A stretch of DNA of 64,000 nucleotides from a virus (lineage: Duplodnaviria; Caudoviricetes): IMG/VR virus record IMGVR_UViG_3300021387_001157, positions 1-64,000 of that record. One strand, 5' to 3'. This document shows, one piece after another, positions 13,088-58,072 of the stretch (position 1 is its first letter; every line of letters starts with the position of its first letter). Under the pieces are notes generated by a model. That model saw nothing but the letters and a program-made list of their open reading frames with translations. It was not told the DNA's origin and did no database searches. The translations under genes were made by a program, and so were the position numbers.

Positions 13088-13133
13088 TAAAAAAACGGAG
13101 AGACTTTTTTATCTCTCCGTTTCTTCTTTTTTT
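13088..13133 (-). terminator. Terminator of NAD operon
   Basis: AAACGGAGAGA..TCTCTCCGTTT. Confidence 0.75.
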
Positions 13134-13144
13134 GAAATCTTTGG

Positions 13145-13963
13145 TCAGATGACTACGAAGTTGGTGTAACCCTTTTCTTCAGCCACCTTACCCCAATCTC
13201 GATAAGATTCGGTTGCAAACACTTTGTCAAAGTTCTTACAGAGGTTGTCGAAACCGACTTCGTTGACGATGTGTGTAACTTTGATGTAGAACTCGGCATC
13301 TGGGAACATTTCTTTCAAAACTTTCAATTCACCCAAGAACGTACCACCGGCGTCACAAAGGTCGTCATAGAGTATGATTTTCTTTCCGTCATTGACGAAA
13401 CAGTTTTCGTTATTCAGATTGAAAGATTTGATACGACCGGTCTCGATGTCACGTTCTTTTTCAAAGTATGCATCTTGTTCCTTTTTTCCTCCGTATCGTT
13501 TTAATGCCCCTTCGTCAGGGAACACCAAATCCACGTCTCCCATATTCCTCTCCAAGAGAAACTTATAAGGATTATAATCTAGAGTTACCGAATTTCTGAT
13601 TTCTAGCATAGTTCTCTCGGAATGTGCTTCAAGTATTGCACAGTCCTGATAACCCATCTGACTAATCATCTTACCGACAATTTTGAGCGTGAACGGTCTT
13701 TCAAAACTCATCACACGGTCCATCCTCATACCCATAAGATAACGAATGTGAAGATTCCAAATGACACCTTGTCTGTCGAGAATGTCACCGACTTGTAAAA
13801 GAATGAACAATTCTTCAGCATTGGTAATTCTACATTCGACCAAATACTCTTCTTTTCTGTTGGGTTCTTCAGTTAGAACAAACTGTACCTCACCATCGGG
13901 GAATCTGTCAATACGGTATTTTACATCGCTTTTTTCTACAGACGATAAATTAATTACTTTCAT
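13145..13963 (-). CDS. prs: Ribose-phosphate pyrophosphokinase-like protein (Prs / phage Adps-type)
   Basis: RFPDGE, MRMDR, EAHS, FPDEGALKRY, KERD, DDLCDAGGTF PRT motifs. Confidence 0.85.
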   Translation of the reverse strand: MKVINLSSVEKSDVKYRIDRFPDGEVQFVLTEEPNRKEEYLVECRITNAEELFILLQVGDILDRQGVIWNLHIRYLMGMRMDRVMSFERPFTLKIVGKMISQMGYQDCAILEAHSERTMLEIRNSVTLDYNPYKFLLERNMGDVDLVFPDEGALKRYGGKKEQDAYFEKERDIETGRIKSFNLNNENCFVNDGKKIILYDDLCDAGGTFLGELKVLKEMFPDAEFYIKVTHIVNEVGFDNLCKNFDKVFATESYRDWGKVAEEKGYTNFVVI

Positions 13964-14708
13964 AATCTAAAATGAACATTTGTACGGGTTCAAGTTTGAA
14001 AACACTTCTTTCGTGCATACTTTTGATTTTATCAATTTTGGTAACAGACGAGTCGTTGTTGCACATACCTTCCGGTTCGACACCTTCCCTTATGTATCTG
14101 TCAAGTTCAGAATATGTGAAACCAAACTTCTCTTCGTCGGTGTTGGAATTTGGAAGACCGTCATCCGGTGTTTTATGTACCAGATGGTGTGGTAAACCAA
14201 GAAAGTCTCCAATTTCAATAACTTCTGATACCGTCAGGTTTCCAATCGGTTCAACGTCAGATGCACCGTCACCATATCTTGTAAAATATCCTACATAGTT
14301 TTCAGATGCATTGCAAGTACCAACGACACGTCCGTTGTTAGACTGACTGACGGCATAAAGTGTCGTCATACGTATTCTCGCTGGAAGATTTGTCTCGGAC
14401 TGACTTGACAATTCAAAACCGATTTCCTTTTTGAGTGCTTCAACAGCCGGAGCGATATTCACCGTTATGTAACGTATTCCAATATGTTTGCACACTTCAA
14501 TAGAGTCATTGATATCCTTCTGAACACCATTTGGCATAAGTACTCCTAACACACGGTCTGGACCGAGAGCACGGGCACATAATTCGGCGACAATTGTACT
14601 GTCTTTTCCACCAGATATTCCAATCACTGCATTACAACTTGGTCCGTTGTTATCGAACCAGTCTTTAATCCAGTTGATTAAATCGTTTGTTACTTTTTCC
14701 ACATTCAT
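13950..14708 (-). CDS. nadE: NH3-dependent NAD+ synthetase
   Basis: GISGGKDS PP-loop, NLPARIRMTTLY, GTCNASENYVGYFTRYGD, TPDDGL..TDEEKFGFTYSELD; no glutaminase domain. Confidence 0.95.
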   Translation of the reverse strand: MNVEKVTNDLINWIKDWFDNNGPSCNAVIGISGGKDSTIVAELCARALGPDRVLGVLMPNGVQKDINDSIEVCKHIGIRYITVNIAPAVEALKKEIGFELSSQSETNLPARIRMTTLYAVSQSNNGRVVGTCNASENYVGYFTRYGDGASDVEPIGNLTVSEVIEIGDFLGLPHHLVHKTPDDGLPNSNTDEEKFGFTYSELDRYIREGVEPEGMCNNDSSVTKIDKIKSMHERSVFKLEPVQMFILDYESN

Positions 14709-15652
14709 AATAAAATACTTTTTAAAAGGTTTTCTTTATCATTTATAACAGTATAAGGTGTTTCTTTTTTATAGTGTGTGAAGTATATTACTTTCACATT
14801 ATTTTCGTCACACAGAAGTTTTTTCTTTTTATCCAAAGATTGTAGATATTCAAATTGTTTTTCTGAAAATTCAAGTCCCTTTCCCGAAAAATCAACTGGT
14901 TCAAAATGTTGCATTCCTTGACATTCTATTGCTATATTTAAATCTGGAAGAAAAAAGTCAAGTCTTTGTCTATTATTCAACCAATTGAACGTTTTTTGTT
15001 CTTCAAACAATATATTTTCAGATAAAAGTATGTCTCTAACTTCGTCTTCAAGTTTTGATGATACACAAAACGGACAACCTCTTTTCAAAGAAAGATGTAC
15101 ATGTGGTGACTGAAAGAAATGTCTTCCACATTTTCTGCATATTATCTCAACCTTTTTGTTTACTCCTTCATACTTTACTAATGAATAATCATATTTATCT
15201 TTATGAATGGTTCTTGCTTTTGATTCAAATTCTTTAGATGATTCTATCAAAATCTGATGGTTTTTCTGATTTCGTTTTTCTTTTCCACATAGACCACAAC
15301 CATATCCATTCAACAAGTCGTTTGGTCTTATCCAAAATTCACCATGTTTTTTGCAGATTACACAAACTTTTTTATGTGCATTAACATACTTAACTTTTGA
15401 ATAATCATAATCTGGAAACTTTTTATTCAATTCTGATATGAAAAATTCTGTTGTTTTATGTTTTCCTTTGCAATAAGGACAACCTTGACCGTTAAGGTGA
15501 GCATGTGGTGTCTGCCAAAATTCACCATGTTCTGGACATATTATACAAACTTTTGTGGTGTTGTTAACATACTCTACATTTGAATAATCATACAATATTC
15601 CATGTTTTAAAATAGATTTCTCTATGAAAGATTCAACAGTATTTCTTTTCAT
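14705..15652 (-). mobile_element. Free-standing homing-type endonuclease (Zn-ribbon repeats plus Vsr/PD-(D/E)xK-like nuclease)
   Basis: Three DYSxVxY..KVxIIC..HG..F...GCPxC repeats, then RLDFFLPDLNIAIECQGMQHF; inserted in NAD operon with its own CATAAATA motif (15676-15683). Confidence 0.75.
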
Positions 15653-15712
15653 ATAAAATATTCATTGGTATAGTATATTTATGTAGATTATACCAATAAA
15701 TATTTTTATCTG

Positions 15713-17251
15713 TTAAACGTTGGATGACAATCTTTCACGAATTTTTGAAAATGACTCAACATTGTAAGGAATACCGTCTTTGAATACCATAACCATTGCA
15801 TTTTCGTGATTTTTTGAGTACTCTTCATACTGTTCCTTGTTTAGTTCATCCTTGTATTCAAAATGGTCGTCTTTTCTTTCAACGAAAACAAGTCCCTTGT
15901 GTGATTTTTTAAGTTTACTTGTATCTGTTTTCGGGTCTTTGAAAATAAACAATTCTTTTCCGTCAATGATACCGAAAGTTGCTTTACATGCACAACCAAA
16001 CATGTCTCTTGTATTGACAATGATTCTATCGTTTTCAAAAACTGCAGAGAAACAGAAAGCACCAACACCAAACACGACATTGTTTGCTGCAAATCCTCTA
16101 CGGTCAAGTTCTTTCCATATTTTACCGACAACATTCAAAGTACATCCATCACCAAGAATGACTCCGATATGTTGGTCAAGAACCTTATATCCCTTTTTGT
16201 TAATTGTTCCACCAAAAGTATTCCATAAGGATTGAACAGTATCTACAGTCACTGTGAATTGGTCGCCGGAATCTGGTCTGATAAGTAATTTCCCATTGTG
16301 GTTCAACACATCCTCTTTCAAAGAAGGAATTATATTGTCAACCATATTCCAATAATCATATGTGTCTGAAACCATAGAAAAACTTGAATTTGGGTAAAGT
16401 TCAGTGAGTAATTTTCTGACAAATGTCTTTTCGTCACCATCGATTGCAAAATTTGCTCCCATAACAGAATGTTCTGTTGACACAGCTCCACAACCAATAT
16501 GACTACCTGAGCAATCTGCATCGTAATATTCGTTGATATATTTCAACGATGGAATTGTACTTGTCTTGTTAAACGACAAAAGCCAAGCGGATGAACATCT
16601 TACTGATTCTTCAAGACATGACATACCTCTCATACCGAAATCGGACATTGCATTTCTCACATCAACATCGTCATCTACAGTTTTACCATACCAATACTTT
16701 GCAAGTTTGTAATACATATGCCCGATTGTGGCATGGTTTGAGATTTTCCAAAGTTCTGATTGGAGAATACATTCAATCCACTGGACCAGCCAAGCAAATT
16801 CCGGATGTGTATTTCTGATTTCAATACAGGGAACTCCCATATTGACGAGAGAACCTTCAGGAAGAGCGTTGATTTGGAGAGGAAGATAACCAAGTTTGTG
16901 GAGTTTTTCAATATGCTCTGTCTTGTAATTTCCATCACCTAACTGAACGTTCATATAGGTTTTGTATTCGTTCAAAACAGATTTAAGATTCTTTTTGAAA
17001 AAGTTCTTTTCGAAATAATCGACGAGGTATTCCTTGATAAATGCTTGGAGACCAAACCATACCATCTTCTGATTTTCCTCCTTTTCGAAATAACTCTTAC
17101 GTGGTACCCAGTAAGATACGAGGTATTCAAGACCTTCTGGATACATCATGTTGTGTACGGTCTTATAGGTGTCACACAACAACATTGGATTCATATCTAA
17201 CATAATTGCTTTATTTTTTGAACTAAATAGTTTATATTCACGAGATTTCAA
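15713..17251 (-). CDS. NAMPT-fold nicotinate/nicotinamide phosphoribosyltransferase (true start may be 17203 or 17194)
   Basis: CDTYK, DFGMRG, STEHSV, SDTYD, IRPDSGD, GDG, FGVG, KDPKTD, KKSHKG motifs. Confidence 0.9.
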   Translation of the reverse strand: MKSREYKLFSSKNKAIMLDMNPMLLCDTYKTVHNMMYPEGLEYLVSYWVPRKSYFEKEENQKMVWFGLQAFIKEYLVDYFEKNFFKKNLKSVLNEYKTYMNVQLGDGNYKTEHIEKLHKLGYLPLQINALPEGSLVNMGVPCIEIRNTHPEFAWLVQWIECILQSELWKISNHATIGHMYYKLAKYWYGKTVDDDVDVRNAMSDFGMRGMSCLEESVRCSSAWLLSFNKTSTIPSLKYINEYYDADCSGSHIGCGAVSTEHSVMGANFAIDGDEKTFVRKLLTELYPNSSFSMVSDTYDYWNMVDNIIPSLKEDVLNHNGKLLIRPDSGDQFTVTVDTVQSLWNTFGGTINKKGYKVLDQHIGVILGDGCTLNVVGKIWKELDRRGFAANNVVFGVGAFCFSAVFENDRIIVNTRDMFGCACKATFGIIDGKELFIFKDPKTDTSKLKKSHKGLVFVERKDDHFEYKDELNKEQYEEYSKNHENAMVMVFKDGIPYNVESFSKIRERLSSNV

Positions 17252-17774
17252 TTTGGCAAGATTTCATAACTTCAAACGTTGCCTTTTGATTTTCTTCACT
17301 TCCAAACAAAGGAGCACAACAATCTGAAATACATTTCACAATAGCCTCTGGAAATTCGGACTTGATGATGAGGGCGTTTGACACAACACATATTGATGTC
17401 ACAGTTCCAACAAAAGTAAACTCACAATCATCACCGTCAATACCGACGGTGTGTGTAATAAATTCATACCAATTTTTATATCCAAACGTAGGTTTGTCCA
17501 CAAAATGGATATTTTCACCGTTGAATTGTAGTTCAGAAACAATCTCCCACCCCCACGTATTTTGTATACAGTGTTTTACTGGTAGATTTTTTCCTTCTTG
17601 TGTTTCCAAATAATTTTCTTGATGTGTGTCTCTTGTGAAGATAATGTGGTCATATTTTCCACTTTCTATTTCTCTTTTTATGTTTGGAATAATTTCCTGT
17701 GCAGCCTGGTTAGCAAGTGAACCAGTAACAAAGTCGTTCTGCATATCAACGACTACTAAAACTTTTTTTGACAT
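17238..17774 (-). CDS. pncA: Nicotinamidase (isochorismatase family)
   Basis: VVDMQNDFVTGSL, TRDTH, LPVKHC, VDKPTFG, GTVTSICV; start ATG 17774. Confidence 0.9.
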   Translation of the reverse strand: MSKKVLVVVDMQNDFVTGSLANQAAQEIIPNIKREIESGKYDHIIFTRDTHQENYLETQEGKNLPVKHCIQNTWGWEIVSELQFNGENIHFVDKPTFGYKNWYEFITHTVGIDGDDCEFTFVGTVTSICVVSNALIIKSEFPEAIVKCISDCCAPLFGSEENQKATFEVMKSCQIEIS

Positions 17775-17799
17775 AACTATATAAGTTTGATTATTATAT

Positions 17800-17873
17800 A
17801 GTAGTTTTGGAACATCCTCCTGGTCTCGTGTCACCAATATATGGCGACGACCGGATTTATCTCCTCACTACCG
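17800..17873 (-). ncRNA. Candidate structured 5' leader RNA of the NAD operon (riboswitch-like)
   Basis: GC-rich island in AT-rich spacer; nested helices GGUAGU/ACUACU, GGAG/UUCC, UCC-GGUC/GACC-A-GGA, GUCGCCA/UGGUGAC. Confidence 0.45.
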
Positions 17874-22899: not shown

Positions 22900-25308
22900 T
22901 TATTGTATTTTTTGTATTTTAGATGCTTTACTGTTCCAATTTTTTGTTCCTTTATACTTTTCTACACTTCCCGCTGGTACATAGATTGTATAATTTGCAT
23001 GAGTTGGAAGTGTATCAGATTTTATAGTTGGAGGAGTTGTGTTTAATGATGTAATTGAAGTAATACCACTACAATTCCAGAAAGCACTACTTCCAATACT
23101 TGCCACTTTGTTACCTATTGTGACTGAAGTAAGACCTCTACAAATATAGAAAGCCATATCTCCAATACTTGTCACATTGTTAGGTATTGTAATAGAGGTA
23201 AGACCAGTACAATTATTGAAAGCACTATGTCCGATACTTGTCACATTGTTACCTATTGTTACAGAAGTAAGACCAGCACAACCATTGAAAGCACTATTTC
23301 CAATATTTGTCACTAAATTAGGTATTGTTACAGATGTAAGACCACTACTAGCGAAAGCACTATCTCCAATACTTGTCACATTGTTAGGTATTGTAATAGA
23401 GGTAAGACCTCTACAACCACCGAAAGCACTATTTCCAATACTTATCACGGAGTTTGGTATTATTGTATTTTTACATCCAGCAATTAACTTATTAGTTGAT
23501 GTCTCTATGATGGCGTTACAATTATCACGACTATCATATTTATTATTACTATTAGAAACTACCATTGAAGTAATACAACTACAACCCCAGAAAGCACCAT
23601 CTACAATACTTTCCACGGAATCTGGTATCGTGACAGAAGTAAGACCAGTACAATTACCGAAAGCACTTTGTCCAATACTTTTCACAGAGTTAGGTATTGT
23701 TACAGAAGTAAGACTAGTACAATTACCGAAAGCACTTTGTCCAATACTTTCCACGGAATTTCCTATCGTGACAGAAGTAAGACCAGTATTATAGAAAGCA
23801 TTTCTTCCAATGCTTTCCACGGAGTCTGGTATTGTTACAGAAGTAAGACTAGTACAGAACTCGAAAGCATCTGGTCCAATACTTGTTACAGAATTACCTA
23901 TTGTGACAGAAGTAAGAGATTCACACATAGAGAAAGCACTATGTCCAATACTTGTCACTGAATCTGGTATTGTGATTGAAGTAAGATTCCAGCATTCCTC
24001 GAAAGCATTACTTCCAATACTTGTCACATTTCCTTTAAAAGTAATAATTCCAACACCATTTTTATAAACATTACTTACGATGTTTGCACCGAAAACATTT
24101 GGCTTTGGATTCACTACATTTTTATCACTACTTGTATAGTGAATATAAGTGTTTGGAATTTGAGGTTTTCTCATTCTAACAAAATTGATTGGGAAGATTC
24201 TTTCAGAGTAAGAACTCAAAGTTGACTTATAGGTTTCAAGAGATTCTCTTAGGACAAAGATTTTCGTAGTATTTGGTAATGCACTATTATTTAAATTTGG
24301 TGGAGTTTGTGGCATACAGATTATATGTGTTAAATTTCGACAATTATAGAAAGATTCATCTCCAATACTTTCCACCGAGTTACCTATTGTGACAGAAGTA
24401 AGACTAGTACACTCAAAGAAAGCTCCATCTCCAATACTTGTCACGGAGTCTGGTATTGTGATTGAAGTAAGATTCCAGCATTCATCGAAAGCACCACCTC
24501 CAATACTTGTCACAGAGTTAGGTATTGTGACAGAAGTAAGACCAGTACACATAGAGAAAGCACCACCTCCAATACTTGTCACGTTGTTAGGTATTGTTAC
24601 AGAAGTAAGACCAGTACACTCATAGAAAGCACTATTTCCAATACTTGTCACGGAGTCGGGTATTATTGTGTTTTTACAACCAACAATTAACGTATTAGTT
24701 GATGTCTCTATGATGGCGTTACAATTATTACGACTATCATATTTATTATTACTATTAGAAACTACTATTGAACTAAGACCACTACAACCATCGAAATATA
24801 CTTGTTCAATATTTTCCACTGAGTTACCTATTGTGACAGAAGTAAGACCATAACAATTTTCGAAAGTACTATCTCCAATACTTGTCACTGAGTCAGGTAT
24901 TGTAACAGAAGTAAGACTTTCACAATGTCGGAAAGCATATTCTCCAATACTTTCCACAGAGTTACCTATTGTGACAGAAGTAAGACCAGTACAAAATGTG
25001 AAAGCATGACTTCCAATACTTGTCACTGAGTCAGGTATTGTAACAGAAGTAAGACTTCTACAATCACTGAAAGCCCTACTTCCAATACTTGTCACTGAGT
25101 CAGGTATTGTAACAGAAGTAAGACTTCTACAATCACTGAAAGCACGACCTCCAATACTTGTCACATCACCATCAAAAGTAATAATTCCAATTCCATTTTC
25201 ATAAACATTATTTACTATGTTTGCACCGAAAACATTTTGCTTAGATGGAGTCACTACATTTCCATCACTACTTGTATAGTGAATCTGATTATTAGGTATA
25301 TTTGCCAT
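22900..25308 (-). CDS. BspA-type (LRR_5) leucine-rich repeat protein, two tandem modules
   Basis: Many 23-aa CxxLTSVTIPxSVTSIGxxAF repeats with N-cap IPNNQIHYTSSDG and C-cap TPPT..IYVP. Confidence 0.9.
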   Translation of the reverse strand: MANIPNNQIHYTSSDGNVVTPSKQNVFGANIVNNVYENGIGIITFDGDVTSIGGRAFSDCRSLTSVTIPDSVTSIGSRAFSDCRSLTSVTIPDSVTSIGSHAFTFCTGLTSVTIGNSVESIGEYAFRHCESLTSVTIPDSVTSIGDSTFENCYGLTSVTIGNSVENIEQVYFDGCSGLSSIVVSNSNNKYDSRNNCNAIIETSTNTLIVGCKNTIIPDSVTSIGNSAFYECTGLTSVTIPNNVTSIGGGAFSMCTGLTSVTIPNSVTSIGGGAFDECWNLTSITIPDSVTSIGDGAFFECTSLTSVTIGNSVESIGDESFYNCRNLTHIICMPQTPPNLNNSALPNTTKIFVLRESLETYKSTLSSYSERIFPINFVRMRKPQIPNTYIHYTSSDKNVVNPKPNVFGANIVSNVYKNGVGIITFKGNVTSIGSNAFEECWNLTSITIPDSVTSIGHSAFSMCESLTSVTIGNSVTSIGPDAFEFCTSLTSVTIPDSVESIGRNAFYNTGLTSVTIGNSVESIGQSAFGNCTSLTSVTIPNSVKSIGQSAFGNCTGLTSVTIPDSVESIVDGAFWGCSCITSMVVSNSNNKYDSRDNCNAIIETSTNKLIAGCKNTIIPNSVISIGNSAFGGCRGLTSITIPNNVTSIGDSAFASSGLTSVTIPNLVTNIGNSAFNGCAGLTSVTIGNNVTSIGHSAFNNCTGLTSITIPNNVTSIGDMAFYICRGLTSVTIGNKVASIGSSAFWNCSGITSITSLNTTPPTIKSDTLPTHANYTIYVPAGSVEKYKGTKNWNSKASKIQKIQ

Positions 25309-26692: not shown

Positions 26693-29600
26693 TTATTGTT
26701 GTATTGCTTCTATTTGAGATGCTATCCTTTCCCATGCTCCCTTATATGCATTTACACTTTCAGCAGGTACATAGATTGTATAAGTTTTATGAGATGGAAG
26801 TGTTGGATAGTACGACAACTGTATTGTTGGAGGAGTTGTGCTTAAAAATGTAATTGAAGTAATACTATCACAGCCATTAAAAACCCATTCTCCCATACTT
26901 GTCACTGAGTTACCTATTGTGACAGAAGTAAGACCAGTACACTTATTGAAAGCATAATTACCAATAGTCGTTACGGAATTTGGTATATTAATTGAAGTAA
27001 GACCAGTACAAAACGAGAAAGCACTTTGTCCAATACTTGTCACTGAATCTGGTATTGTGATAGAAGTAAGACCACTGCAACCACCGAAAGCATAATCTCC
27101 AATACTTGTCACGGAGTTAGGTATAGTAATTGAAGTAAGACCAGTACAATGATTGAAAGCATTTTGTCCAATACTTGTCATTTTATTACCTAATGTGACT
27201 GAAGTTAGATTATTACAATTATAGAAAGCACCATTTCCAATACTTGTCACTGAATCTGGTATTGTGATAGAAGTAAGACCAGTACAACCTTCAAAAGCAC
27301 GACTTCCGATACTTGTCACAGACTCAGGTATTATTGTATTTTTACATCCAAGAATTAACGTATTAGTTGATGTCTCTATTATAGCATTACAATTATCTCT
27401 ACTATCATATTTAGTATTACCTTCAGAAACTATTATTGAAGTAAGACCACTACAACCATTGAAAACGCCATTTCCAATACTTGTTACAGAATCTGGTATT
27501 GTGATAGAAGTAAGACCACTGCAACCTTCAAAAGCAGAATCTCCAATATCTGTCACTTTATTACCTAATGTGACTGAAGTTAGATTATTACAACTTTGGA
27601 AAGCTTGTTTTCCAATACTTGTTACTGAGTCAGGTATATTGATTGAAGTAAGACCAGTACAACTTTGGAAAGCTTGATTTCCAATACTTGTTACTGAGTC
27701 AGGTATATTGATTGAAGTAAGACCAGTACAATTATAGAAAGTATCATATCCAATACTTGCCACTTTGTTACCTATTGTGACAGAAGTAAGACTAGTACAA
27801 TTCGAGAAAGCACCGTCAATACTTGTCACTGAGTTAGGTATTGTGATTGAAGTAAGACCAGCACAATCATAGAAAGCATAATTACCAATAGTCGTTACGG
27901 AATTTGGTATATTAATTGAAGTAAGACCACTACAACCTTCAAAAGCATATTCTCCAATACTTGTCACTGAATCTGGTATTGTGACAGAAGTAAGAGATTC
28001 ACACATAGAGAAAGCACCATCTTCAATACTTGTCACTGAATCTGGTATTGTGACTGAAGTAAGACCAGTACAATTACTGAAAGTCCAACTTCCAATATTT
28101 GTCACATCACCATCAAAAGTAATAATTCCAATACCATTTTCATAAACATTACTTACTATGTTTGCACCAAAAACGTCTGTACCATATGGAGTTACCACTT
28201 TTCCATCACTAGTTGTATAGTGAATTTCATTGTTTGGAATTGTTTGAATTTGAGGTTTTCTCATTCTAACAAAATTGATTGGGAAGATTCTTTCAGAGTA
28301 AGAACTCAAAGTTGACTTATATGTTTCAAGTGATTCTCTTGGTACAAAGATTTTTGTAGTATCTGGTAATGCAGTACTATCTAAAGTTGGTGGAGTTTGT
28401 GACATACAGATTATATGTGTTAAATTTGTACAACCATTGAAAGCACTTTCTCCAATACTTTCAACGGAATTACCTATCGTGACAGAAGTCAAACCACTAC
28501 AATAATAGAAAGCATAATCTCCAATACTTTTCACAGAATTAGGTATTGTGATAGAAGTAAGACTAGTACAATTAATGAAAGCATAATTTCCAATACTTTC
28601 CACTTTATTACCTATTGTGACTGAAGTAAGCATTCTACAACCTTGGAAAGTATTATTTCCAATACTTGCCACTTTGTTACCTATTGTGACAGAAGTAAGT
28701 CTACTACAACCATTGAAAGCACTACCTCCAATACTTGTAACAGAGTCTGGTATTGTGATAGAAGTAAGACGATTACAATAATCGAAAGCATTACTTCCAA
28801 TACTTTCCACTTTATTACCTATTGTGACAGAAGTAAGACTTTCACAACCTTGGAAAGCATTATCTCCAATACTTTCCACTTTATTACCTATTGTAACAGA
28901 AGTAAGACCATAACAATTTTTGAAAACATTATCTCCAATACTTGTTACTGAGTTGGGAATAATTACATTATTACCAGTTATTGTAGTGTCAGCACCGACT
29001 AAAGTAGTTTTAGTACTATCGGTGTATAAAAATCCATTTTCAAAAGTACAATTTCTATAAGTTGCACCCCAATTATTATTACCAGTATCAGTTGCATTTC
29101 CAGTATAAATAATATTAGTAACTCCATTGAAAGCACCATCTCCAATACTTGTTACAGAATTAGGAATATCAATTGAAAGTAATTTAGTACAACCACTGAA
29201 AGCATAATATTCAATACTTTCCACTGAGTCAGGTATTGTGACTGAAGTCAGACTAGTACAACCTTGGAAAGTATTACTTCCAATACTTGTCACAGAGTTG
29301 GGTATAGTGACTGAAGTAAGACGAGTACAACCTTGGAAAGCATTACTTCCAATACTTGTCACAGAGTTGGGTATAGTGACTGAAGTAAGACGAGTACAAC
29401 CTTGGAAAGCATTACTTCCAATACTTGCCACAGAGTTGGGTATAGTGACTGAAGTAAGACGAGTACAACCTTGGAAAGCATTACTTCCAATACTTGCCAC
29501 TTTGTTACCTATTGTGACAGAAGTAAGACCATAACAATTTTTGAAAACATTATCTCCAATACTTGTTACTGAGTCAGGTATTGTAACAGAAGTAAGACTT

Positions 29601-30058
29601 TCACAATCTTGGAAAGCATAATTTCCAATACTTTCCACTTTATTACCTATTGTGACAGAAGTAAGTCTACTACAACCTTGGAAAGCATTTTGTCCAATAC
29701 TTGCCACTTTGTTACCTATTGTGACAGAAGTAAGTCTACTACAACCATTGAAAGCAGACTTTCCAATACTTGTTACAGAGTTGGGTATTGTGACTGAAGT
29801 AAGAGTACTACAATTCCAGAAAGCATTATTTCCAATACTTGTCACTGAGTCAGGTATTGTGACAGAAGTAAGACCATAACAATTATAGAAAGCATAACTT
29901 CCAATACTTGTCACATTTCCTTTAAAAGTAATAATTCCAATACCATTTTCATAAACATTGGTATCGATTTCTGCACCGAAAATATTTGATGCATGTGGAG
30001 TCACTACATTTCCATCACTACTTGTGTACCAAATTTGATTATTAGGTATATTTGCCAT
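26693..30058 (-). CDS. BspA-type (LRR_5) leucine-rich repeat protein, two tandem modules
   Basis: Paralogue of 22900-25308 with more repeats; near-identical upstream region, linker and terminator. Confidence 0.9.
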   Translation of the reverse strand: MANIPNNQIWYTSSDGNVVTPHASNIFGAEIDTNVYENGIGIITFKGNVTSIGSYAFYNCYGLTSVTIPDSVTSIGNNAFWNCSTLTSVTIPNSVTSIGKSAFNGCSRLTSVTIGNKVASIGQNAFQGCSRLTSVTIGNKVESIGNYAFQDCESLTSVTIPDSVTSIGDNVFKNCYGLTSVTIGNKVASIGSNAFQGCTRLTSVTIPNSVASIGSNAFQGCTRLTSVTIPNSVTSIGSNAFQGCTRLTSVTIPNSVTSIGSNTFQGCTSLTSVTIPDSVESIEYYAFSGCTKLLSIDIPNSVTSIGDGAFNGVTNIIYTGNATDTGNNNWGATYRNCTFENGFLYTDSTKTTLVGADTTITGNNVIIPNSVTSIGDNVFKNCYGLTSVTIGNKVESIGDNAFQGCESLTSVTIGNKVESIGSNAFDYCNRLTSITIPDSVTSIGGSAFNGCSRLTSVTIGNKVASIGNNTFQGCRMLTSVTIGNKVESIGNYAFINCTSLTSITIPNSVKSIGDYAFYYCSGLTSVTIGNSVESIGESAFNGCTNLTHIICMSQTPPTLDSTALPDTTKIFVPRESLETYKSTLSSYSERIFPINFVRMRKPQIQTIPNNEIHYTTSDGKVVTPYGTDVFGANIVSNVYENGIGIITFDGDVTNIGSWTFSNCTGLTSVTIPDSVTSIEDGAFSMCESLTSVTIPDSVTSIGEYAFEGCSGLTSINIPNSVTTIGNYAFYDCAGLTSITIPNSVTSIDGAFSNCTSLTSVTIGNKVASIGYDTFYNCTGLTSINIPDSVTSIGNQAFQSCTGLTSINIPDSVTSIGKQAFQSCNNLTSVTLGNKVTDIGDSAFEGCSGLTSITIPDSVTSIGNGVFNGCSGLTSIIVSEGNTKYDSRDNCNAIIETSTNTLILGCKNTIIPESVTSIGSRAFEGCTGLTSITIPDSVTSIGNGAFYNCNNLTSVTLGNKMTSIGQNAFNHCTGLTSITIPNSVTSIGDYAFGGCSGLTSITIPDSVTSIGQSAFSFCTGLTSINIPNSVTTIGNYAFNKCTGLTSVTIGNSVTSMGEWVFNGCDSITSITFLSTTPPTIQLSYYPTLPSHKTYTIYVPAESVNAYKGAWERIASQIEAIQQ

Positions 30059-51663: not shown

Positions 51664-52257
51664 TTACTTTATCTTTTCGGAAAGCTCTATGTATTTCTTG
51701 ATGACATCACGTCTCTCATACACACAGTTTGGAACCCATTTATTCAACTCATCGTCACCATTCAAAATCATCTGACGGACTTTGGTGGCGGAAATTCCCG
51801 AACACGTTGCACCACGTGCAAGAAGTTTCAGACTAACGAAATCCCTCATAATGAAAGTAGGGAACCAAGTCGTGATAATTTCAAATCCGTCCGAATAGTA
51901 GATGGTGAAATACGGTGTTTCGGCATCTTTGAGGATTTTCGTAAAAAGATAGAACCCCCAATCGTGGGAATTGTCACTTTCGTCTGTGAGGTCATCGAGT
52001 GGAACGATATGAACATCCGCCGGAATGACACCCGTAGCATACCTCTTTGCAAGTTCCTTCAAAGCCTCCTCTGCAAGTTGTTTCCTCAAATTAATGGGAA
52101 TGGGATTTCTCTGGTTGAATTTGTCTGCACTTCCGATGAAGATGAAAACCTGGTCGTTTTCATCACAAGCCTGCTCGATGAGTTCAAGGTGTCCGTTGTG
52201 GATTGGTTGTAGTCTAGCAAGCACGACCCCTGTTTTTATACTTTCCATTTTTTTCAA
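51664..52257 (-). CDS. NadM-like NMN/NaMN adenylyltransferase (cytidylyltransferase family)
   Basis: ARLQPIHNGH (HxGH), IGSAD..NQRNP, ISATKVRQ. Confidence 0.8.
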   Translation of the reverse strand: MKKMESIKTGVVLARLQPIHNGHLELIEQACDENDQVFIFIGSADKFNQRNPIPINLRKQLAEEALKELAKRYATGVIPADVHIVPLDDLTDESDNSHDWGFYLFTKILKDAETPYFTIYYSDGFEIITTWFPTFIMRDFVSLKLLARGATCSGISATKVRQMILNGDDELNKWVPNCVYERRDVIKKYIELSEKIK

Positions 52258-52482
52258 ATTTTAATTTATACAGTTCGTTATATGCTTCCATTAGTTTGTA
52301 ATAAACGTCTCTCTCGTCTACCATGATACTGTTGCAGTACTTCGAACACCAGTACTGAATCCTGTCTTTCACCTCCTGTTCAGTCAATGGTCTCTCGTCA
52401 AGACCACCCACGTGGAACACTTCGGTGTAATGCTTACTCTCTCTCTCCTTATTCTGAAAATGTTCCCTACCGCTTCAATCAT
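52214..52482 (-). pseudogene. Small gene frameshifted at a (GA)5G tract
   Basis: ATG 52482 is coupled to the upstream stop; removing one GA at 52437-52447 joins it to the 52214-52420 ORF. Confidence 0.5.
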
Positions 52483-53005
52483 TCTCACCCCCCTCTCCGA
52501 ACATTCCGTTCTTCTTATAGTACTCACGCTTCAATAAGCAAACAACATGTACGTTTGGCAACTGACACGGATTCTTCGGATTGGTGTCTTTCACCTTGTA
52601 CTCCTCCGGATACATGTCGAGTAGATACCTCACAACACCCTGGCTCCTCGATATTCCCGCCGAACAATGAACCATCACGTTCTTTCCCACATTCGACTCG
52701 AGAAACTCGAAAAGACGTTTGGCATCCTCGTCGCTCATCCCGTGCACGTCACTGTATTCCTCCATCTTCTCAGGAGTCCATTCCTCGTTTGGAAGGGCAT
52801 CCCACATCCGATAACCGGCGATGTCGTCGAAGTTCAGGTTTATCACCTGCTCACACTCCTTCAACACATGTGGTTCCTTACGACAAGGTTCGTACTCACC
52901 AATCGAGATGAAAACCCAGTCTTCCGGAAGATGCCCGTCAGACCACTCGTTGTTCAGCAACTCACGTCTGAACCCCTCCCAACTGTAGCACATAAGTTTA
53001 GCCAT
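52475..53005 (-). CDS. Cys-based (dual-specificity/tyrosine) phosphatase-like protein
   Basis: VHCSAGISRS (HCxxGxxR); LNFDD. Confidence 0.85.
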   Translation of the reverse strand: MAKLMCYSWEGFRRELLNNEWSDGHLPEDWVFISIGEYEPCRKEPHVLKECEQVINLNFDDIAGYRMWDALPNEEWTPEKMEEYSDVHGMSDEDAKRLFEFLESNVGKNVMVHCSAGISRSQGVVRYLLDMYPEEYKVKDTNPKNPCQLPNVHVVCLLKREYYKKNGMFGEGGEND

Positions 53006-53171
53006 ATATATTATTCTTCTTTATTTTTCTCAGCCTCAATAAATTCGTTCAACACCGAATTTTCATATCCCTTTTCAATCTCGTTCCTAATCTCAGTCTC
53101 CTTCATTTCCGGACTCACGTAAATAAATTCTACCATAACTATATTATAAAGATACTATTTTTTATAAAAAA

Positions 53172-53690
53172 ATGAAAAACAAAAAAACCCCGTCCGAAAA
53201 CTGGATACGAGAATTTAATAAAGCAGCAGAATCGACAGCAGACTCATTGAATACAATCCTGTCCCAAATCGGATTGCACGTGGTAGAAGTCCCACACGAC
53301 TTCTCAAACACCGATTCTAAAAAATACGGAATATTCCTACGGCACGGAAAATCATTCAACGAAAACACCATAGAAATCTCACTCAACCCAACACTCGTTT
53401 TCGAAAAACTTTCTGAACTCGGAAAGACCTCTCTCCGTGATGCCAGACATCAGGCGTCTATCCTCACCGTCCACGAGACTGCCCACGGAATTATAGACCA
53501 TATAAGGAAACACTATATGGATTCTGGACTCACATACACGTCAATCGTATCTAAAATCAAGAATAACTCACAGGAAGAGGAAAGAACTGCAAGAGACTTC
53601 TCACTGAACTTCGTCGACCCCTCCTACAAGTCTCTCCTGAGACTTTCCCTTGCAGAACTCCTTGAACTCACGGTACGTGGTGAAACTTAA
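53172..53690 (+). CDS. Putative HExxH metalloprotein
   Basis: TVHETAHGIIDH..EEERTA. Confidence 0.5.
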   Translation: MKNKKTPSENWIREFNKAAESTADSLNTILSQIGLHVVEVPHDFSNTDSKKYGIFLRHGKSFNENTIEISLNPTLVFEKLSELGKTSLRDARHQASILTVHETAHGIIDHIRKHYMDSGLTYTSIVSKIKNNSQEEERTARDFSLNFVDPSYKSLLRLSLAELLELTVRGET

Positions 53691-56337
53691 ATCCTCGAAC
53701 CCGTCTTCACCGAGATTCCCCCCGTGAAGCATCTCAACGTATTCGTCATCCCCTATCTCAACCCTCGACGACTCGAAACTCTTGTCAATGCCGGTCAGTG
53801 AATCAACACCGACCCTAATCCTACGATAGACACCGGAATAGTCGACAAACTCAACGAAAACATCTGGCATCTGAGTCACGTCCTGAACGAAACCCTCGAA
53901 TACATTCCCTTGGAAAGGAACTTCAACACGGTCCCCGACATTCACGTCATACTCTATGATAAACTTTGCCATCACTCCTCCTTCTTTAAGATTTTCTCAA
54001 GAACCACAGAAACCACATAGAATGCCGACACCGTGGCAGCCGACACTCCGAACAGTTTTATTAAAAAATCCTTCATATTACTATTTACTGTACTTTATGC
54101 TCTTCTACAAATTTCCACCCTATGTTCTCATAGATAATTCCCCCCATTAAGGGTGTACAATCAAACGGAACGACATCCTTGTATCCTTCAGACCTCATCC
54201 TATCAGCCTCCTTCTTCACCTCTTCCACATCATCGTACTGTCCGACAATCCACGGAAGACCTTCTAAGTTCACTTCACTCACATCAGCAAGACTACACGG
54301 AATACCGTCGAAATCGTGTCCATTACGGTCTCTATATGCTATACTATAACTTTTCTTAATTCTTTCCATGTGTTATACTTCTTTTACTTATTATTCATCA
54401 TTCCATACCTCTCCCTTATGAAAGACTCGACCAATCCAACGACAAAACACTTCATATCTACCAACGAATAAATCCTATCCAAAGACTCCATCCTCTGTAT
54501 CCGGTACTTCTTCGTCCCGTCCCACCACTCGGCACGGAACACCAGAGAACTATCGTCTGGCATGAAACTATTCATTATGAAAAACTCCACAAACCTCATG
54601 CTCGGAAACTCCTCATACTTACACAGGATTGCCGGATAGTCAAGACTGTGGTTTTTCTCGAAAACCACCTCAACCATCCTAGTGGTCAAACCACTTATCC
54701 CAAGTCCGTCCAACTTCCCCTTTAAATCAACAAGTACAGTCAATCCTCTATCCATAATCTATACCAATTTATTTCTTCAACTATATGGAATATTCAATCA
54801 ACGTGGTTACAAAGTCAAAGTCAAAGTCATACTCCTCTCTCTCGACAGCAACCATCTCTTCGAATGCCTTCTCTACAAAATCATAACGATAGGAAAAAAT
54901 CCTATAATATCTGTCCAACAGGAGATAATTGAAACCATATATGTCTATGTAAATCCACGCCCTCTCAACCCCAACGACACGAAACTCGTCACCTGTCTCC
55001 TTATACACTATCACATCACCTTTCGAAAATTTCAAATCGTCCTTATCCATTTCCCCTCCTTTTTATATCCAATATTTTTTCAAATTCTTCTTTATCTCCT
55101 ACGAAGTCTGACCCTCTCATCCTACATCTTCTCCTCCATAATCTTATCTTTCTTTCTCTTGAACCTTTCAAGCTCATAGGGCATCAAATACTCACACCCC
55201 TCCACCACATTTCTCCCAATCTCCAACACCCTCTGAATAGTATCCCTCCTTATGTACACAGATTCGGAATTGGACAACTTTTCAAGAAAAAAATATATTG
55301 TGCTCTTCTCAAACTTTCTACTGAAAGGATAATCACCCTCTTTCTCCTTTAATAGACTCAGAATATCCCTGAACAACTCATTACCACACGAACTATGCTC
55401 ATTCGGATAAAACCTTATAAAGTACTCATTATCTTTCCTCAAGTCAGAAAGCATACCGTCAATGACCGACAGACTACCCTTCCTTAAAGAATCACCAATC
55501 TCAAGGTCTTCACCGGTCAATTCATACTCATCTCTTATCTTCATACCTACTCATTCTAATGTCGTCAACTATTATGACAACGACCAATACCAAAACCGGA
55601 GTGAACACCAAAGAAAGAACAAATACTATATATCGGTTAAAACCGGCCAAGTACTCTGCCATCTTACCTATTGAGTACGAAAGCCATACATAACCACATA
55701 TCACAAAAATGAAAACAACTAATGTTACAGTATCCATATTATTTCTGTTTTTTATCGTTCAACTTCCTTATAATACCCAATCTCTGCTTCATCAACTTCA
55801 TCCAACCTTCAGTGTGAATCCTACCTATCCTCTCAATATTCTCTATCTCCCTCAACCTACTCCATAATATTTCACGTAACTCATCCTCACACTCATCGTT
55901 TGTCATATACCTCCCAGTCTTCCAATCGTATCTCGCCATATACTCTTTAATCTGAAAACTACATAATCAAACCACGTCTTGAACACAACCAACTTCACAC
56001 TCACCACGTCACCATCTTTTCCTATACAGTACTCACTCCCCTTCGGAATGATACATGTACGTAAATTTGTTACTTCCCCAAAAATCACATCTTCTTCCTT
56101 TAACATACTGTGAAACCCCTCGTGAATACCCCCTCTACAATCAATATACAAATGCTCTATGGGATTTCTCCCATCCATCGCCGTATTGACTTTGTTGTAA
56201 TCAAAAGGTGTAAAAAAATAAGGGGAACGCCAACACGTTTTTTCATCATCATATACCCTATCAAGCACACTTTTGTATACTTTGATGTCTTTCTTTGCTA
56301 TCTCTATCTTTCCGTTTTCGGGAACAAATAAACACAT
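53601..56337 (-). other. Run of small hypothetical genes (53601-53975, 54085-54369, 54384-54755, 54781-55050, 55122-55544, 55528-55737, 55739-55939, 55903-56337)
   Basis: Tightly packed co-oriented ORFs downstream of promoter motif at 56359-56375. Confidence 0.65.
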
Positions 56338-56741: not shown

Positions 56742-56817
56742 CCAAAAATACCCCTTTTTTAGGGGGTCCAAAATACCCCTTTTTAGGGGGGTCCAAAATA
56801 CCCCTTTTTAGGGGGGT
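56742..56817. repeat. Three ~25-bp tandem repeats CCAAAATACCCCTTTTTAGGGGGGT
   Basis: Read directly; each unit is self-complementary (ACCCC/GGGGT). Confidence 0.9.
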
Positions 56818-57317
56818 CGAAAAAAGGGCCTATTTTGGGATTTCGAAAAATATGGTGTTTTTTTGAAATACCCATTTTTCTATATTTTGAGAAAATGCAC
56901 TTTTTGTCATTTTTTAGATTTATATGATTTTTATCATATTTACAAAATTCGTGTTTTTTTTTTGGTTTTTTCATTTTTTCTTATTTCTGAGTATTTTGTA
57001 AAAACGACATATTTTACAAAATACCTAGTTTTTGTAAAATATTGATTTTTTATATTTTATATAAAACCCCCATATTTCGAAAATCTACGTTGTTTCTTTC
57101 AATATATTAATAATGAATATTTGGTGTTTTGTGTATATATCTGATATATACAGATATTCATTACAAATGGATTTCCACAATTATACCATACTATCTCCCT
57201 ATAATCATCAGTGCCTCAATTGGATACCTTCGGATGTTCAGCTTGAGTGGTGTGGTGATGTCCATCTACATCCAGTTGGAACATCAACCGGTTGTACCAT
57301 GCTTCCTGGAAAGCTTC

Positions 57318-57419
57318 CTCCCAGGAACTGTCCATCTCCCAGGAACTGTCCATCTCCCAGGAACCATCCATCTCCCAGGAACCATCCATCTCCCAGGAAC
57401 TGTCCATCTCCCAGGAAAG
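57318..57419. repeat. 18-bp tandem repeat CTCCCAGGAAC(TG/CA)TCCAT, five full copies plus one partial
   Basis: Read directly; no spacers. Confidence 0.95.
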
Positions 57420-57571: not shown

Positions 57572-58072
57572 TTATTTTTTATAGAATTTTGAGATTGGTA
57601 TTTCAAGTGGTTGATGGACGAGACCTTTGATGTCCTTTTCATTCTGCACCATCGTCCGTATAAGAGACGAGGAGATTCCACTGAGTTGCGACGGAGTTGG
57701 GATGAATATGGTACGGATAGTTGGGTCTATGATTCTGTTTGATTCTGATAGGATAAGTTCATTTTCGAAATCCAATGTGTTTCGGATACCTCTGAACATA
57801 ATAGTAATTTCGTTCTGTTGACAAAAGTCGACAAGGAGGCCTTCGATATAAGTTACTTTTATATTTGGTGAGATATGTTTGACAGACTCTAAAATCCAAT
57901 TACTTCTTATGGCGACATCGAGTTGTGTCGGGGGTGTCTTCTCGGGATTGACGGCAATGACGATTAAAAGTTCATCGACAAGCTTTGAGGCGACGTTGGC
58001 TACATACTCATGACCGATGTGGAATGGATTGAATGAACCGGCGAAGATACCACGAGTCATACTATTGTTCAT
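57572..58072 (-). CDS. coaD: Phosphopantetheine adenylyltransferase
   Basis: GSFNPFHIGH, AVNPEK, GLLVDF, RGIRNTLDFENE, ISSSLIR. Confidence 0.9.
   Translation of the reverse strand: MNNSMTRGIFAGSFNPFHIGHEYVANVASKLVDELLIVIAVNPEKTPPTQLDVAIRSNWILESVKHISPNIKVTYIEGLLVDFCQQNEITIMFRGIRNTLDFENELILSESNRIIDPTIRTIFIPTPSQLSGISSSLIRTMVQNEKDIKGLVHQPLEIPISKFYKK

Follow-up and report, generated by a model that had tools for sequence, protein, structure and literature searches.

A phage gene cluster joining a NARP1-like enzyme pair to nicotinamidase and NadE may rebuild NAD+ from nicotinate

Depletion of nicotinamide adenine dinucleotide (NAD+) is among the most common strategies by which bacteria resist phages, and among the known ways in which phages counter it NARP1 is the principal one. 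NARP1, described in Bas63, SPbetaL1 and FADO, pairs a Prs-fold enzyme (Adps) with a NAMPT-fold transferase (Namat) (bioRxiv 10.1101/2024.02.11.579819, PMC12774641, PMC13586617). NARP1-AP extends the pair with a macro phosphatase, Adpp, in answer to aRES (bioRxiv 10.64898/2026.01.28.702374), NARP2 of Vibrio phage KVP40 combines Nampt with Nmnat, and NARP3 consists of PnuC and NadR (PMC13464706). Preiss-Handler clusters, which run via nicotinate and deamido-NAD (NaAD), are known at the level of annotation from Bacillus phage G, Sinorhizobium phage Phosso and the 'Kuafu' gut jumbo phages (PMC11662467). Here we describe a gene cluster of a large gut-type phage, in the first 64,000 bases (the window) of IMG/VR virus record IMGVR_UViG_3300021387_001157 (193,840 bases, 67% complete by CheckV). 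Based on its sequence and gene context, there is about an even chance that this cluster is a nicotinate-type derivative of NARP1, in which nicotinamide would be converted to nicotinate, ADP-ribose (ADPR) to ADP-ribose pyrophosphate (ADPR-PP), the two products joined to form NaAD, and NaAD converted by NadE to NAD+. The original prediction, made from this DNA alone, had called such a route a third pathway; with NARP3 and NARP1-AP described that count is out of date, and what the cluster implies beyond the known systems is one new enzyme reaction.

The cluster lies on the minus strand at 13145-17837 and comprises five consecutive co-oriented open reading frames (ORFs; Table 1). The prediction had listed co-oriented genes for PncA, a NAMPT-fold enzyme, NadE and a short Prs-like protein, with no adenylyltransferase gene among them, all of which the ORFs bear out, and the end it gave, 17774, is the likely ATG of pncA. 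However, it overlooked a homing endonuclease gene between the second and third. With NARP1 the cluster shares the Prs-fold and NAMPT-fold pair, an intact catalytic core, an aromatic residue at the position of Namat Phe392 in the adenine clamp, and a short Prs-like protein with a remodeled pyrophosphate (PP) loop. Unlike NARP1, it replaces Namat Asp215 and four other pocket residues and would need PncA and NadE, the predicted product of its transferase being NaAD rather than NAD+. PncA and NadE are likewise absent from NARP1-AP, which uses nicotinamide. Both enzymes are shared with the Preiss-Handler clusters; where those have a PncB-family nicotinate phosphoribosyltransferase (NAPRT) plus NadD or NMNAT, and no Prs-like gene, the window has a Namat-clade enzyme and an Adps-like gene, its transferase is not of the PncB family, and no nicotinate mononucleotide (NaMN) adenylyltransferase is encoded in the operon. 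NARP2 and NARP3 are also phage-encoded means of NAD+ restoration; NARP3 has no component in common with the cluster.

The pyridine pocket of the transferase is remodeled. Ser231 aligns with Asp219 of human NAMPT (chain 4O1A) and with Asp215 of SPbetaL1 Namat (9W5X), and Lys229 aligns with human Gly217. A Ser at the nicotinamide-specificity position had been predicted, and both alignments confirm it. NAMPT D219S reportedly also accepts nicotinate, a finding ascribed to Khan et al. in 2006. In human NAMPT, Asp219 determines substrate specificity (PMC7096376) and forms one hydrogen-bond network with His191, Gly217 and Tyr188, in which G217R makes a basic patch (PMC4186856). In Namat, Asp215 hydrogen-bonds nicotinamide, D215A lowers activity 8-fold, and Ala242 lines the nicotinamide pocket (PMC12774641).

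The change in this pocket is wider than the single Ser predicted. When 162 sequences carrying Ser or Ala at the human Asp219 site (Ser/Ala-type) were set against 83 that have Asp or Glu there (Asp/Glu-type), four further positions were seen to switch along with it, changes being present in all 162. The His at the human His191 position and the Gly at the human Gly217 position are invariant in the Asp/Glu-type (83/83 each), while in the Ser/Ala-type they give way to Gly, Ala, Ser or Cys and to Lys or Asn, respectively. At the human Tyr188 position an aromatic residue is replaced by Met, Arg, Thr or Lys, and at the Namat Ala242 position Ala (83/83) becomes Ser (162/162). The residue sets of the two types are disjoint at human Asp219, human His191 and Namat Ala242 and overlap slightly at Gly217 and Tyr188. 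In the window the five pocket residues are Ser231, Lys229, Ser203, Asn200 and Ser258, which stand for human Asp219, Gly217, His191 and Tyr188 and Namat Ala242, respectively. We infer that a pocket that has lost an acid and gained a base and a hydroxyl would suit a carboxylate substrate.

The altered pocket is tightly linked to PncA and NadE. In the 80 IMG/VR relatives (61-74% identity) a stretch of about 8 kb encodes PncA, the Prs-like protein, the transferase and NadE, with exceptions only at contig ends; since the same gene set recurs in 80/80 relatives wherever the locus extends far enough, it is not a product of chance. Among 84 viral Ser/Ala-type loci, PncA and NadE are both present in 77, and the remaining 7 are cut short. 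With other Ser-type sequences as seeds, a scan of metagenomes yielded a further 79 loci, human-gut assemblies among them; the pocket site is Ala or Ser in all 78 loci readable there, and of the 30 loci flanked on each side by 2.5 kb or more, 26 have all four genes. PncA or NadE accompanies none of the 83 Asp/Glu-type enzymes. As a control, of 80 relatives of the FADO NARP1 enzyme, 79 belong to two-gene Prs and NAMPT-fold loci with Asp or Glu at the site and neither PncA nor NadE; the exception, IMG/VR locus L167, is Ala-type. The linkage persists where the genes are rearranged and at identities as low as about 35-47%. The distant Ala-type members with the same genes are L167, the gut contig MT835544 and phage phAss-1, whose GenBank annotation already names nicotinamidase, Prs and NAMPT. 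The family is sizeable: in a library of cluster representatives for 1.84 billion proteins, the top 150 clusters at 50% identity include no fewer than 48 that are non-acidic at the site. These results support in silico the predicted rebuilding of NAD+ from nicotinate.

The transferase itself belongs to the Namat lineage. It scores 391 bits against the crystallized SPbetaL1 Namat chains (9W5X/9W5W) versus about 170 bits against human NAMPT, and 167 bits (30% identity) against the Nampt of KVP40. In a tree with that enzyme as its one Nampt outgroup, the transferase falls on the Prs-associated (Namat) side and KVP40 Nampt on a long separate branch. KVP40 Nampt also differs at the pocket sites, which are Asp and Gly, and at the clamp position of Namat Phe392, which is Gly there and in human NAMPT as well, as judged from the F392G swap (PMC12774641); the window keeps an aromatic residue at this position, and Phe or Tyr is found in 84/84 viral loci. 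The transferase retains the core residues Asp, Tyr, Phe, Arg, His and Arg. That His corresponds to human His247, which is central to the active site and cannot be mutated without loss of activity (PMC7096376). Conservation does not extend to the loop element of the clamp: at the position of Namat Arg40 the window has Tyr, whereas most relatives have Met. As a homologue of the transferase the phage G cluster, annotated with a NAPRT, was rejected, the transferase finding no match in phage G.

The Prs-like partner likewise departs from housekeeping Prs. Adps is recognized by loss of the C-terminal alpha11-alpha12 module, a remodeled PP loop and a catalytic Lys (PMC13586617). The Prs-like protein of the window lacks this module, stopping at the residue that aligns with position 290 of the 315 in E. 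coli Prs, and its loop, DDLCDAGGT, is without the canonical Thr of DTGGT. The 161 phage Prs-like copies compared, FADO's and K's among them, are all short, with ends that fall near E. coli Prs 290-297 of 315, and none has the canonical Thr (0/161). The catalytic residues (Arg, His, Asp, Lys and Asp-Asp) remain in place. Against the Prs model TIGR01251 the window protein scores 65.6 bits (cut-off 113), and seven Prs-like proteins scored in this way, those of the window, FADO and K among them, all fall below the cut-off. The assignment to Adps follows these published criteria rather than a direct comparison, the Adps structures of PMC13586617 being absent from the solved chains searched. In a tree, most partners of Ser/Ala-type enzymes are sister to the FADO/K group (support 99), and the copies of the window and of locus L003 nest with partners of a Glu-type two-gene lineage (support 88-92). 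These two copies were swapped in from another two-gene lineage of the NARP1 type, which suggests that both kinds do the same job.

The two remaining enzymes fit the ends of the proposed pathway. The PncA-like protein matches the NCBIfam PncA model weakly; its best solved relatives are true nicotinamidases (1ILW/1IM5, 2H0R and 2WT9), and its Asp-Lys-Cys triad and Asp/His/His metal ligands align with those of Pyrococcus horikoshii PncA and yeast Pnc1. NadE scores 195 bits against TIGR00552 (cut-off 63.65) and has an SGGKDS ATP loop and no glutaminase domain. PncA would hydrolyze the nicotinamide freed by NAD+-cleaving defense enzymes to nicotinate, and the Adps-like enzyme would pyrophosphorylate ADPR to ADPR-PP at the expense of ATP. 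The Namat-clade transferase, its amide-reading pocket rebuilt, would then join nicotinate and ADPR-PP to give NaAD, which NadE would amidate to NAD+. In general terms, the Ser/Ala-type relatives of Namat may, as we see it with roughly equal odds either way, be nicotinate ADP-ribose transferases that make NaAD directly, giving a four-enzyme 'deamidated NARP1' with no mononucleotide intermediate and no adenylyltransferase. By analogy with NARP1, the likely role of the cluster is to replenish NAD+ in infected hosts that carry NADase defenses.

Of the two routes originally proposed, nicotinate with ADPR-PP or with phosphoribosyl pyrophosphate (PRPP), the first is favored by the position of the transferase on the Namat side of the tree and by the Adps-like partner. 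It is also favored by the accessory genes of the relatives. A macro gene is present in 71/84 viral and 19/79 metagenome Ser/Ala-type loci; its profile is of the Poa1p type, matching yeast ADPR-1''-phosphate phosphatase (E 1e-14) and BT1257, and a macro phosphatase of this type is what distinguishes NARP1-AP from NARP1. A NADAR gene occurs in 36/84 viral loci. In the relatives, macro and NADAR genes lie between the transferase gene and nadE, inside the operon, and they point to ADPR rather than ribose-5-phosphate as the probable feedstock. Finally, most complete genomes have neither NMNAT nor NadD. Among 10 near-complete genomes that encode the module, 8 gave no PF01467 adenylyltransferase match, and an adenylyltransferase is absent from all 79 metagenome loci.

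Several observations weigh against the formation of NaAD from nicotinate and ADPR-PP. No paper found describes this reaction, and none joins Namat with nicotinate, NaAD or NadE, most subscription journals being outside the search; the paper on phAss-1 merely lists its nicotinamidase. The Ser/Ala-type enzymes all group in a single clade (SH-aLRT 88; 99 without phAss-1), and therefore their association with PncA and NadE is a single inherited event rather than repeated convergence: independent origins of the pocket change were sought and not found, the tree needing one change only, and the association is a single ancient event, faithfully kept. NadE by itself is not diagnostic, since Xanthomonas phage X1 pairs it with an Asp-type Nampt; with X1 and three gut fragments that have NadE alone, it was rejected as a marker of the Ser-type. 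The cluster of the window has no macro or NADAR gene of its own. In addition, unlike in NARP1, the second clamp aromatic, Namat Tyr396, is lost, a Val standing in its place after a 9-residue insertion in the clamp helix. NadE is nearly as similar to the Francisella enzyme 3FIU as to archaeal NadE, and in the literature the Francisella homologue is a nicotinamide mononucleotide (NMN) synthetase. Two further points against it, the use of PRPP by Namat and a NadM-like gene in the window, are taken up with the alternatives below.

The main alternative is a look-alike of the Preiss-Handler pathway based on PRPP, which we regard as possible if doubtful. Under this scenario, the Prs-like protein would make PRPP, the Ser-type enzyme would act as a non-orthologous NAPRT to form NaMN, conversion of NaMN to NaAD would fall to NadD of the host or to the NadM-like enzyme of the phage, and NadE would complete NAD+. 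Namat does retain activity with PRPP (bioRxiv 10.1101/2024.02.11.579819), the loss of Tyr396 is in keeping with such a route, and Preiss-Handler genes have been reported from gut jumbo phages (PMC11662467). A NadM-like gene, predicted at a distance from the cluster, is indeed present 34 kb away, and one lies directly after nadE in 14/80 loci; archaeal NadM can use NaMN (PMC3376133). The ADPR-PP route in its pure form would not need a NadM-like enzyme, and this gene weighs against it. However, it is unlinked to the cluster in the window, and we rejected it as a conserved partner because 8/10 near-complete genomes have no homologue or PF01467 domain; it is an optional accessory rather than a conserved part of the module. 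That most near-complete genomes with the module have no adenylyltransferase stands against the PRPP route, whereas the PncB-based clusters of phage G and Phosso do have one and have no Prs-like gene. The Prs-like gene also departs from true Prs just as NARP1 partner genes do, and the macro and NADAR genes within the operon indicate ADPR, not ribose-5-phosphate.

Another alternative concerns purpose rather than chemistry. By either the ADPR-PP or the PRPP route, the module might top up NAD+ for NAD-dependent phage enzymes or exploit nicotinate in the gut, with no part in anti-immunity. A survey of jumbo phages interprets such genes as an independent NAD+ supply (PMC11662467), but the core pair comes from a family shown to defeat NADase defenses (bioRxiv 10.1101/2024.02.11.579819), the accessory macro gene is of the type that answers aRES, and the proposed feedstock, ADPR, is itself a product of NAD+ cleavage. 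We consider a purely general role unlikely.

A route of the Francisella type, in which the transferase makes NaMN, NadE acts as NMN synthetase and the NadM-like enzyme makes NAD+ from NMN, is very improbable. The Francisella NadE homologue has been described as an NMN synthetase (PMC3376133), and 3FIU, at 138 bits, is the second-best solved match of the window NadE; the best, however, is archaeal 2E18, and the route would depend on the NadM-like gene, present in the window and missing from most genomes with the module. We give hardly any credence to the last alternative, that the Ser-type enzyme still uses nicotinamide like ordinary Namat with PncA and NadE as unrelated passengers: a Ser can still hydrogen-bond an amide and D215A Namat keeps some activity, but five pocket residues change jointly and only in company with PncA and NadE, and PncA would destroy the transferase's own substrate.

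If the formation of NaAD from nicotinate and ADPR-PP holds, it would be a new enzyme reaction in NAD metabolism, and a counter-defense would have been re-plumbed to the form of the vitamin available in the host. One possible reason for such re-plumbing is that nicotinamide is lost to a nicotinamidase of the host before it can serve an ordinary Namat. The module would then be common in phages of the human gut, the rumen and other metagenome samples, and the five pocket residues together with linkage to PncA and NadE would provide a simple sequence rule separating the two forms. Genes of this family are now annotated as NAMPT, Prs or 'hypothetical', which hides the pathway.

Table 1. Features of the NAD cluster and related elements in the window, with examples of long family members from other loci
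Feature	Coordinates	Strand	Details
PncA-like nicotinamidase	17238..17774, ORF open to TTG at 17837	-	178 amino acids from likely ATG 17774; PF00857 (Isochorismatase), E 5e-19
NAMPT-fold transferase, Namat clade	15713..17251	-	512 amino acids; likely start ATG 17203; PF04095 + PF18127; phrog_448, E 9e-161
Promoter-like site, just upstream of HNH gene	15687..15716	-	TTAACA, 18 nt, TG-TATAAT; 11/12 consensus matches; consensus match only
Free-standing HNH/homing endonuclease	14705..15652	-	315 amino acids; phrog_559, E 5e-64; DUF4379 zinc finger (treble-clef) + DUF723
NH3-dependent NadE, single domain	13950..14708	-	252 amino acids; PF02540, E 2e-59; TIGR00552
Adps-like (Prs-fold) pyrophosphokinase, predicted	13145..13963	-	272 amino acids; phrog_619, E 1e-51
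Terminator-like hairpin, T-runs on both sides	13093..13122	-	directly 3' of Prs-like stop codon
NadM-like (archaeal-type) NMN/NaMN adenylyltransferase	51664..52257	-	PF01467, 30 bits; NF002243, 50.6 bits, under cut-off; weak
Long split family members (examples)	L011 8004-9944; L024 8004-9953; other loci		proteins P0003, P0029, P0052, P0125

The genes of the cluster are closely packed. The HNH and NadE genes overlap by 4 nt and the NadE and Prs-like genes by 14 nt, and an overlap of 14 nt between the PncA and NAMPT-fold genes requires TTG 17251 as the start of the latter. The hairpin that follows is the probable end of the operon, judged from its sequence and position. The Prs-like and NAMPT-fold genes, directly adjacent in most relatives, are 1.7 kb apart in the window, with the HNH gene and nadE between them. 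The HNH gene is a selfish insertion between the transferase gene and nadE, outside the pathway; at this site the relatives have either macro and NADAR genes or no gene at all. In several of them (L001, L023 and others) nadE is also bordered by HNH genes, and it may be a homing hotspot. A search for DNA nearly identical to the operon among phage records gave a single 106-base match only, and Rfam and tRNA scans of the window gave no matches. A gene with a NADAR domain (94.7 bits) is found elsewhere in the record, at 168783-169172 on the minus strand, outside the window and unlinked to the NAD cluster.

Within the transferase family, many members are 570-910 amino acids long and match the NAMPT fold in two or three separate segments, which suggests inserted elements (inteins or other domains) in the transferase gene. 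One protein, P0024, has an HNH/AP2 region at its N-terminus. Another, P0114 (865 amino acids), contains both transferase and NadE domains; a natural fusion would speak for successive steps, but we give it no weight, since it is possibly a gene-calling artifact, and in its closest metagenome relatives the transferase and NadE genes abut but are separate. Phage X1 (L181; 530-4717 and 11902-17661) has a different, mixed architecture, with NadE, NMNAT, the Asp-type Nampt and, nearby, an annotated ADP-ribosyltransferase of 1395 amino acids, and no PncA.

Elsewhere in the window, the NadM-like gene adjoins a minus-strand gene at 52475-53005 for a small protein with the Cys-phosphatase signature HCSAGISRS and a weak dual-specificity phosphatase match in Pfam (24 bits, below the cut-off). 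The region 52000-56000 has a strong negative GC skew (to -0.50) and many short minus-strand ORFs without family matches. CoaD, the phosphopantetheine adenylyltransferase, is encoded at 57572-58072 on the minus strand (TIGR01510, 121 bits; cut-off 103); a gene of coenzyme A biosynthesis is unusual in a phage. This region is flanked by tandem arrays at 56745-56823 (3.2 copies of a 25-nt unit) and 57318-57417 (5.6 copies of an 18-nt unit), with 94-95% matches. Two paralogous large proteins of 802 and 1121 amino acids, encoded on the minus strand at 22900-25308 and 26693-30058, match two families of unknown function, phrog_35892 and phrog_18805, repeatedly (5-10 matches), and one of the two has a weak match to a minor head protein.

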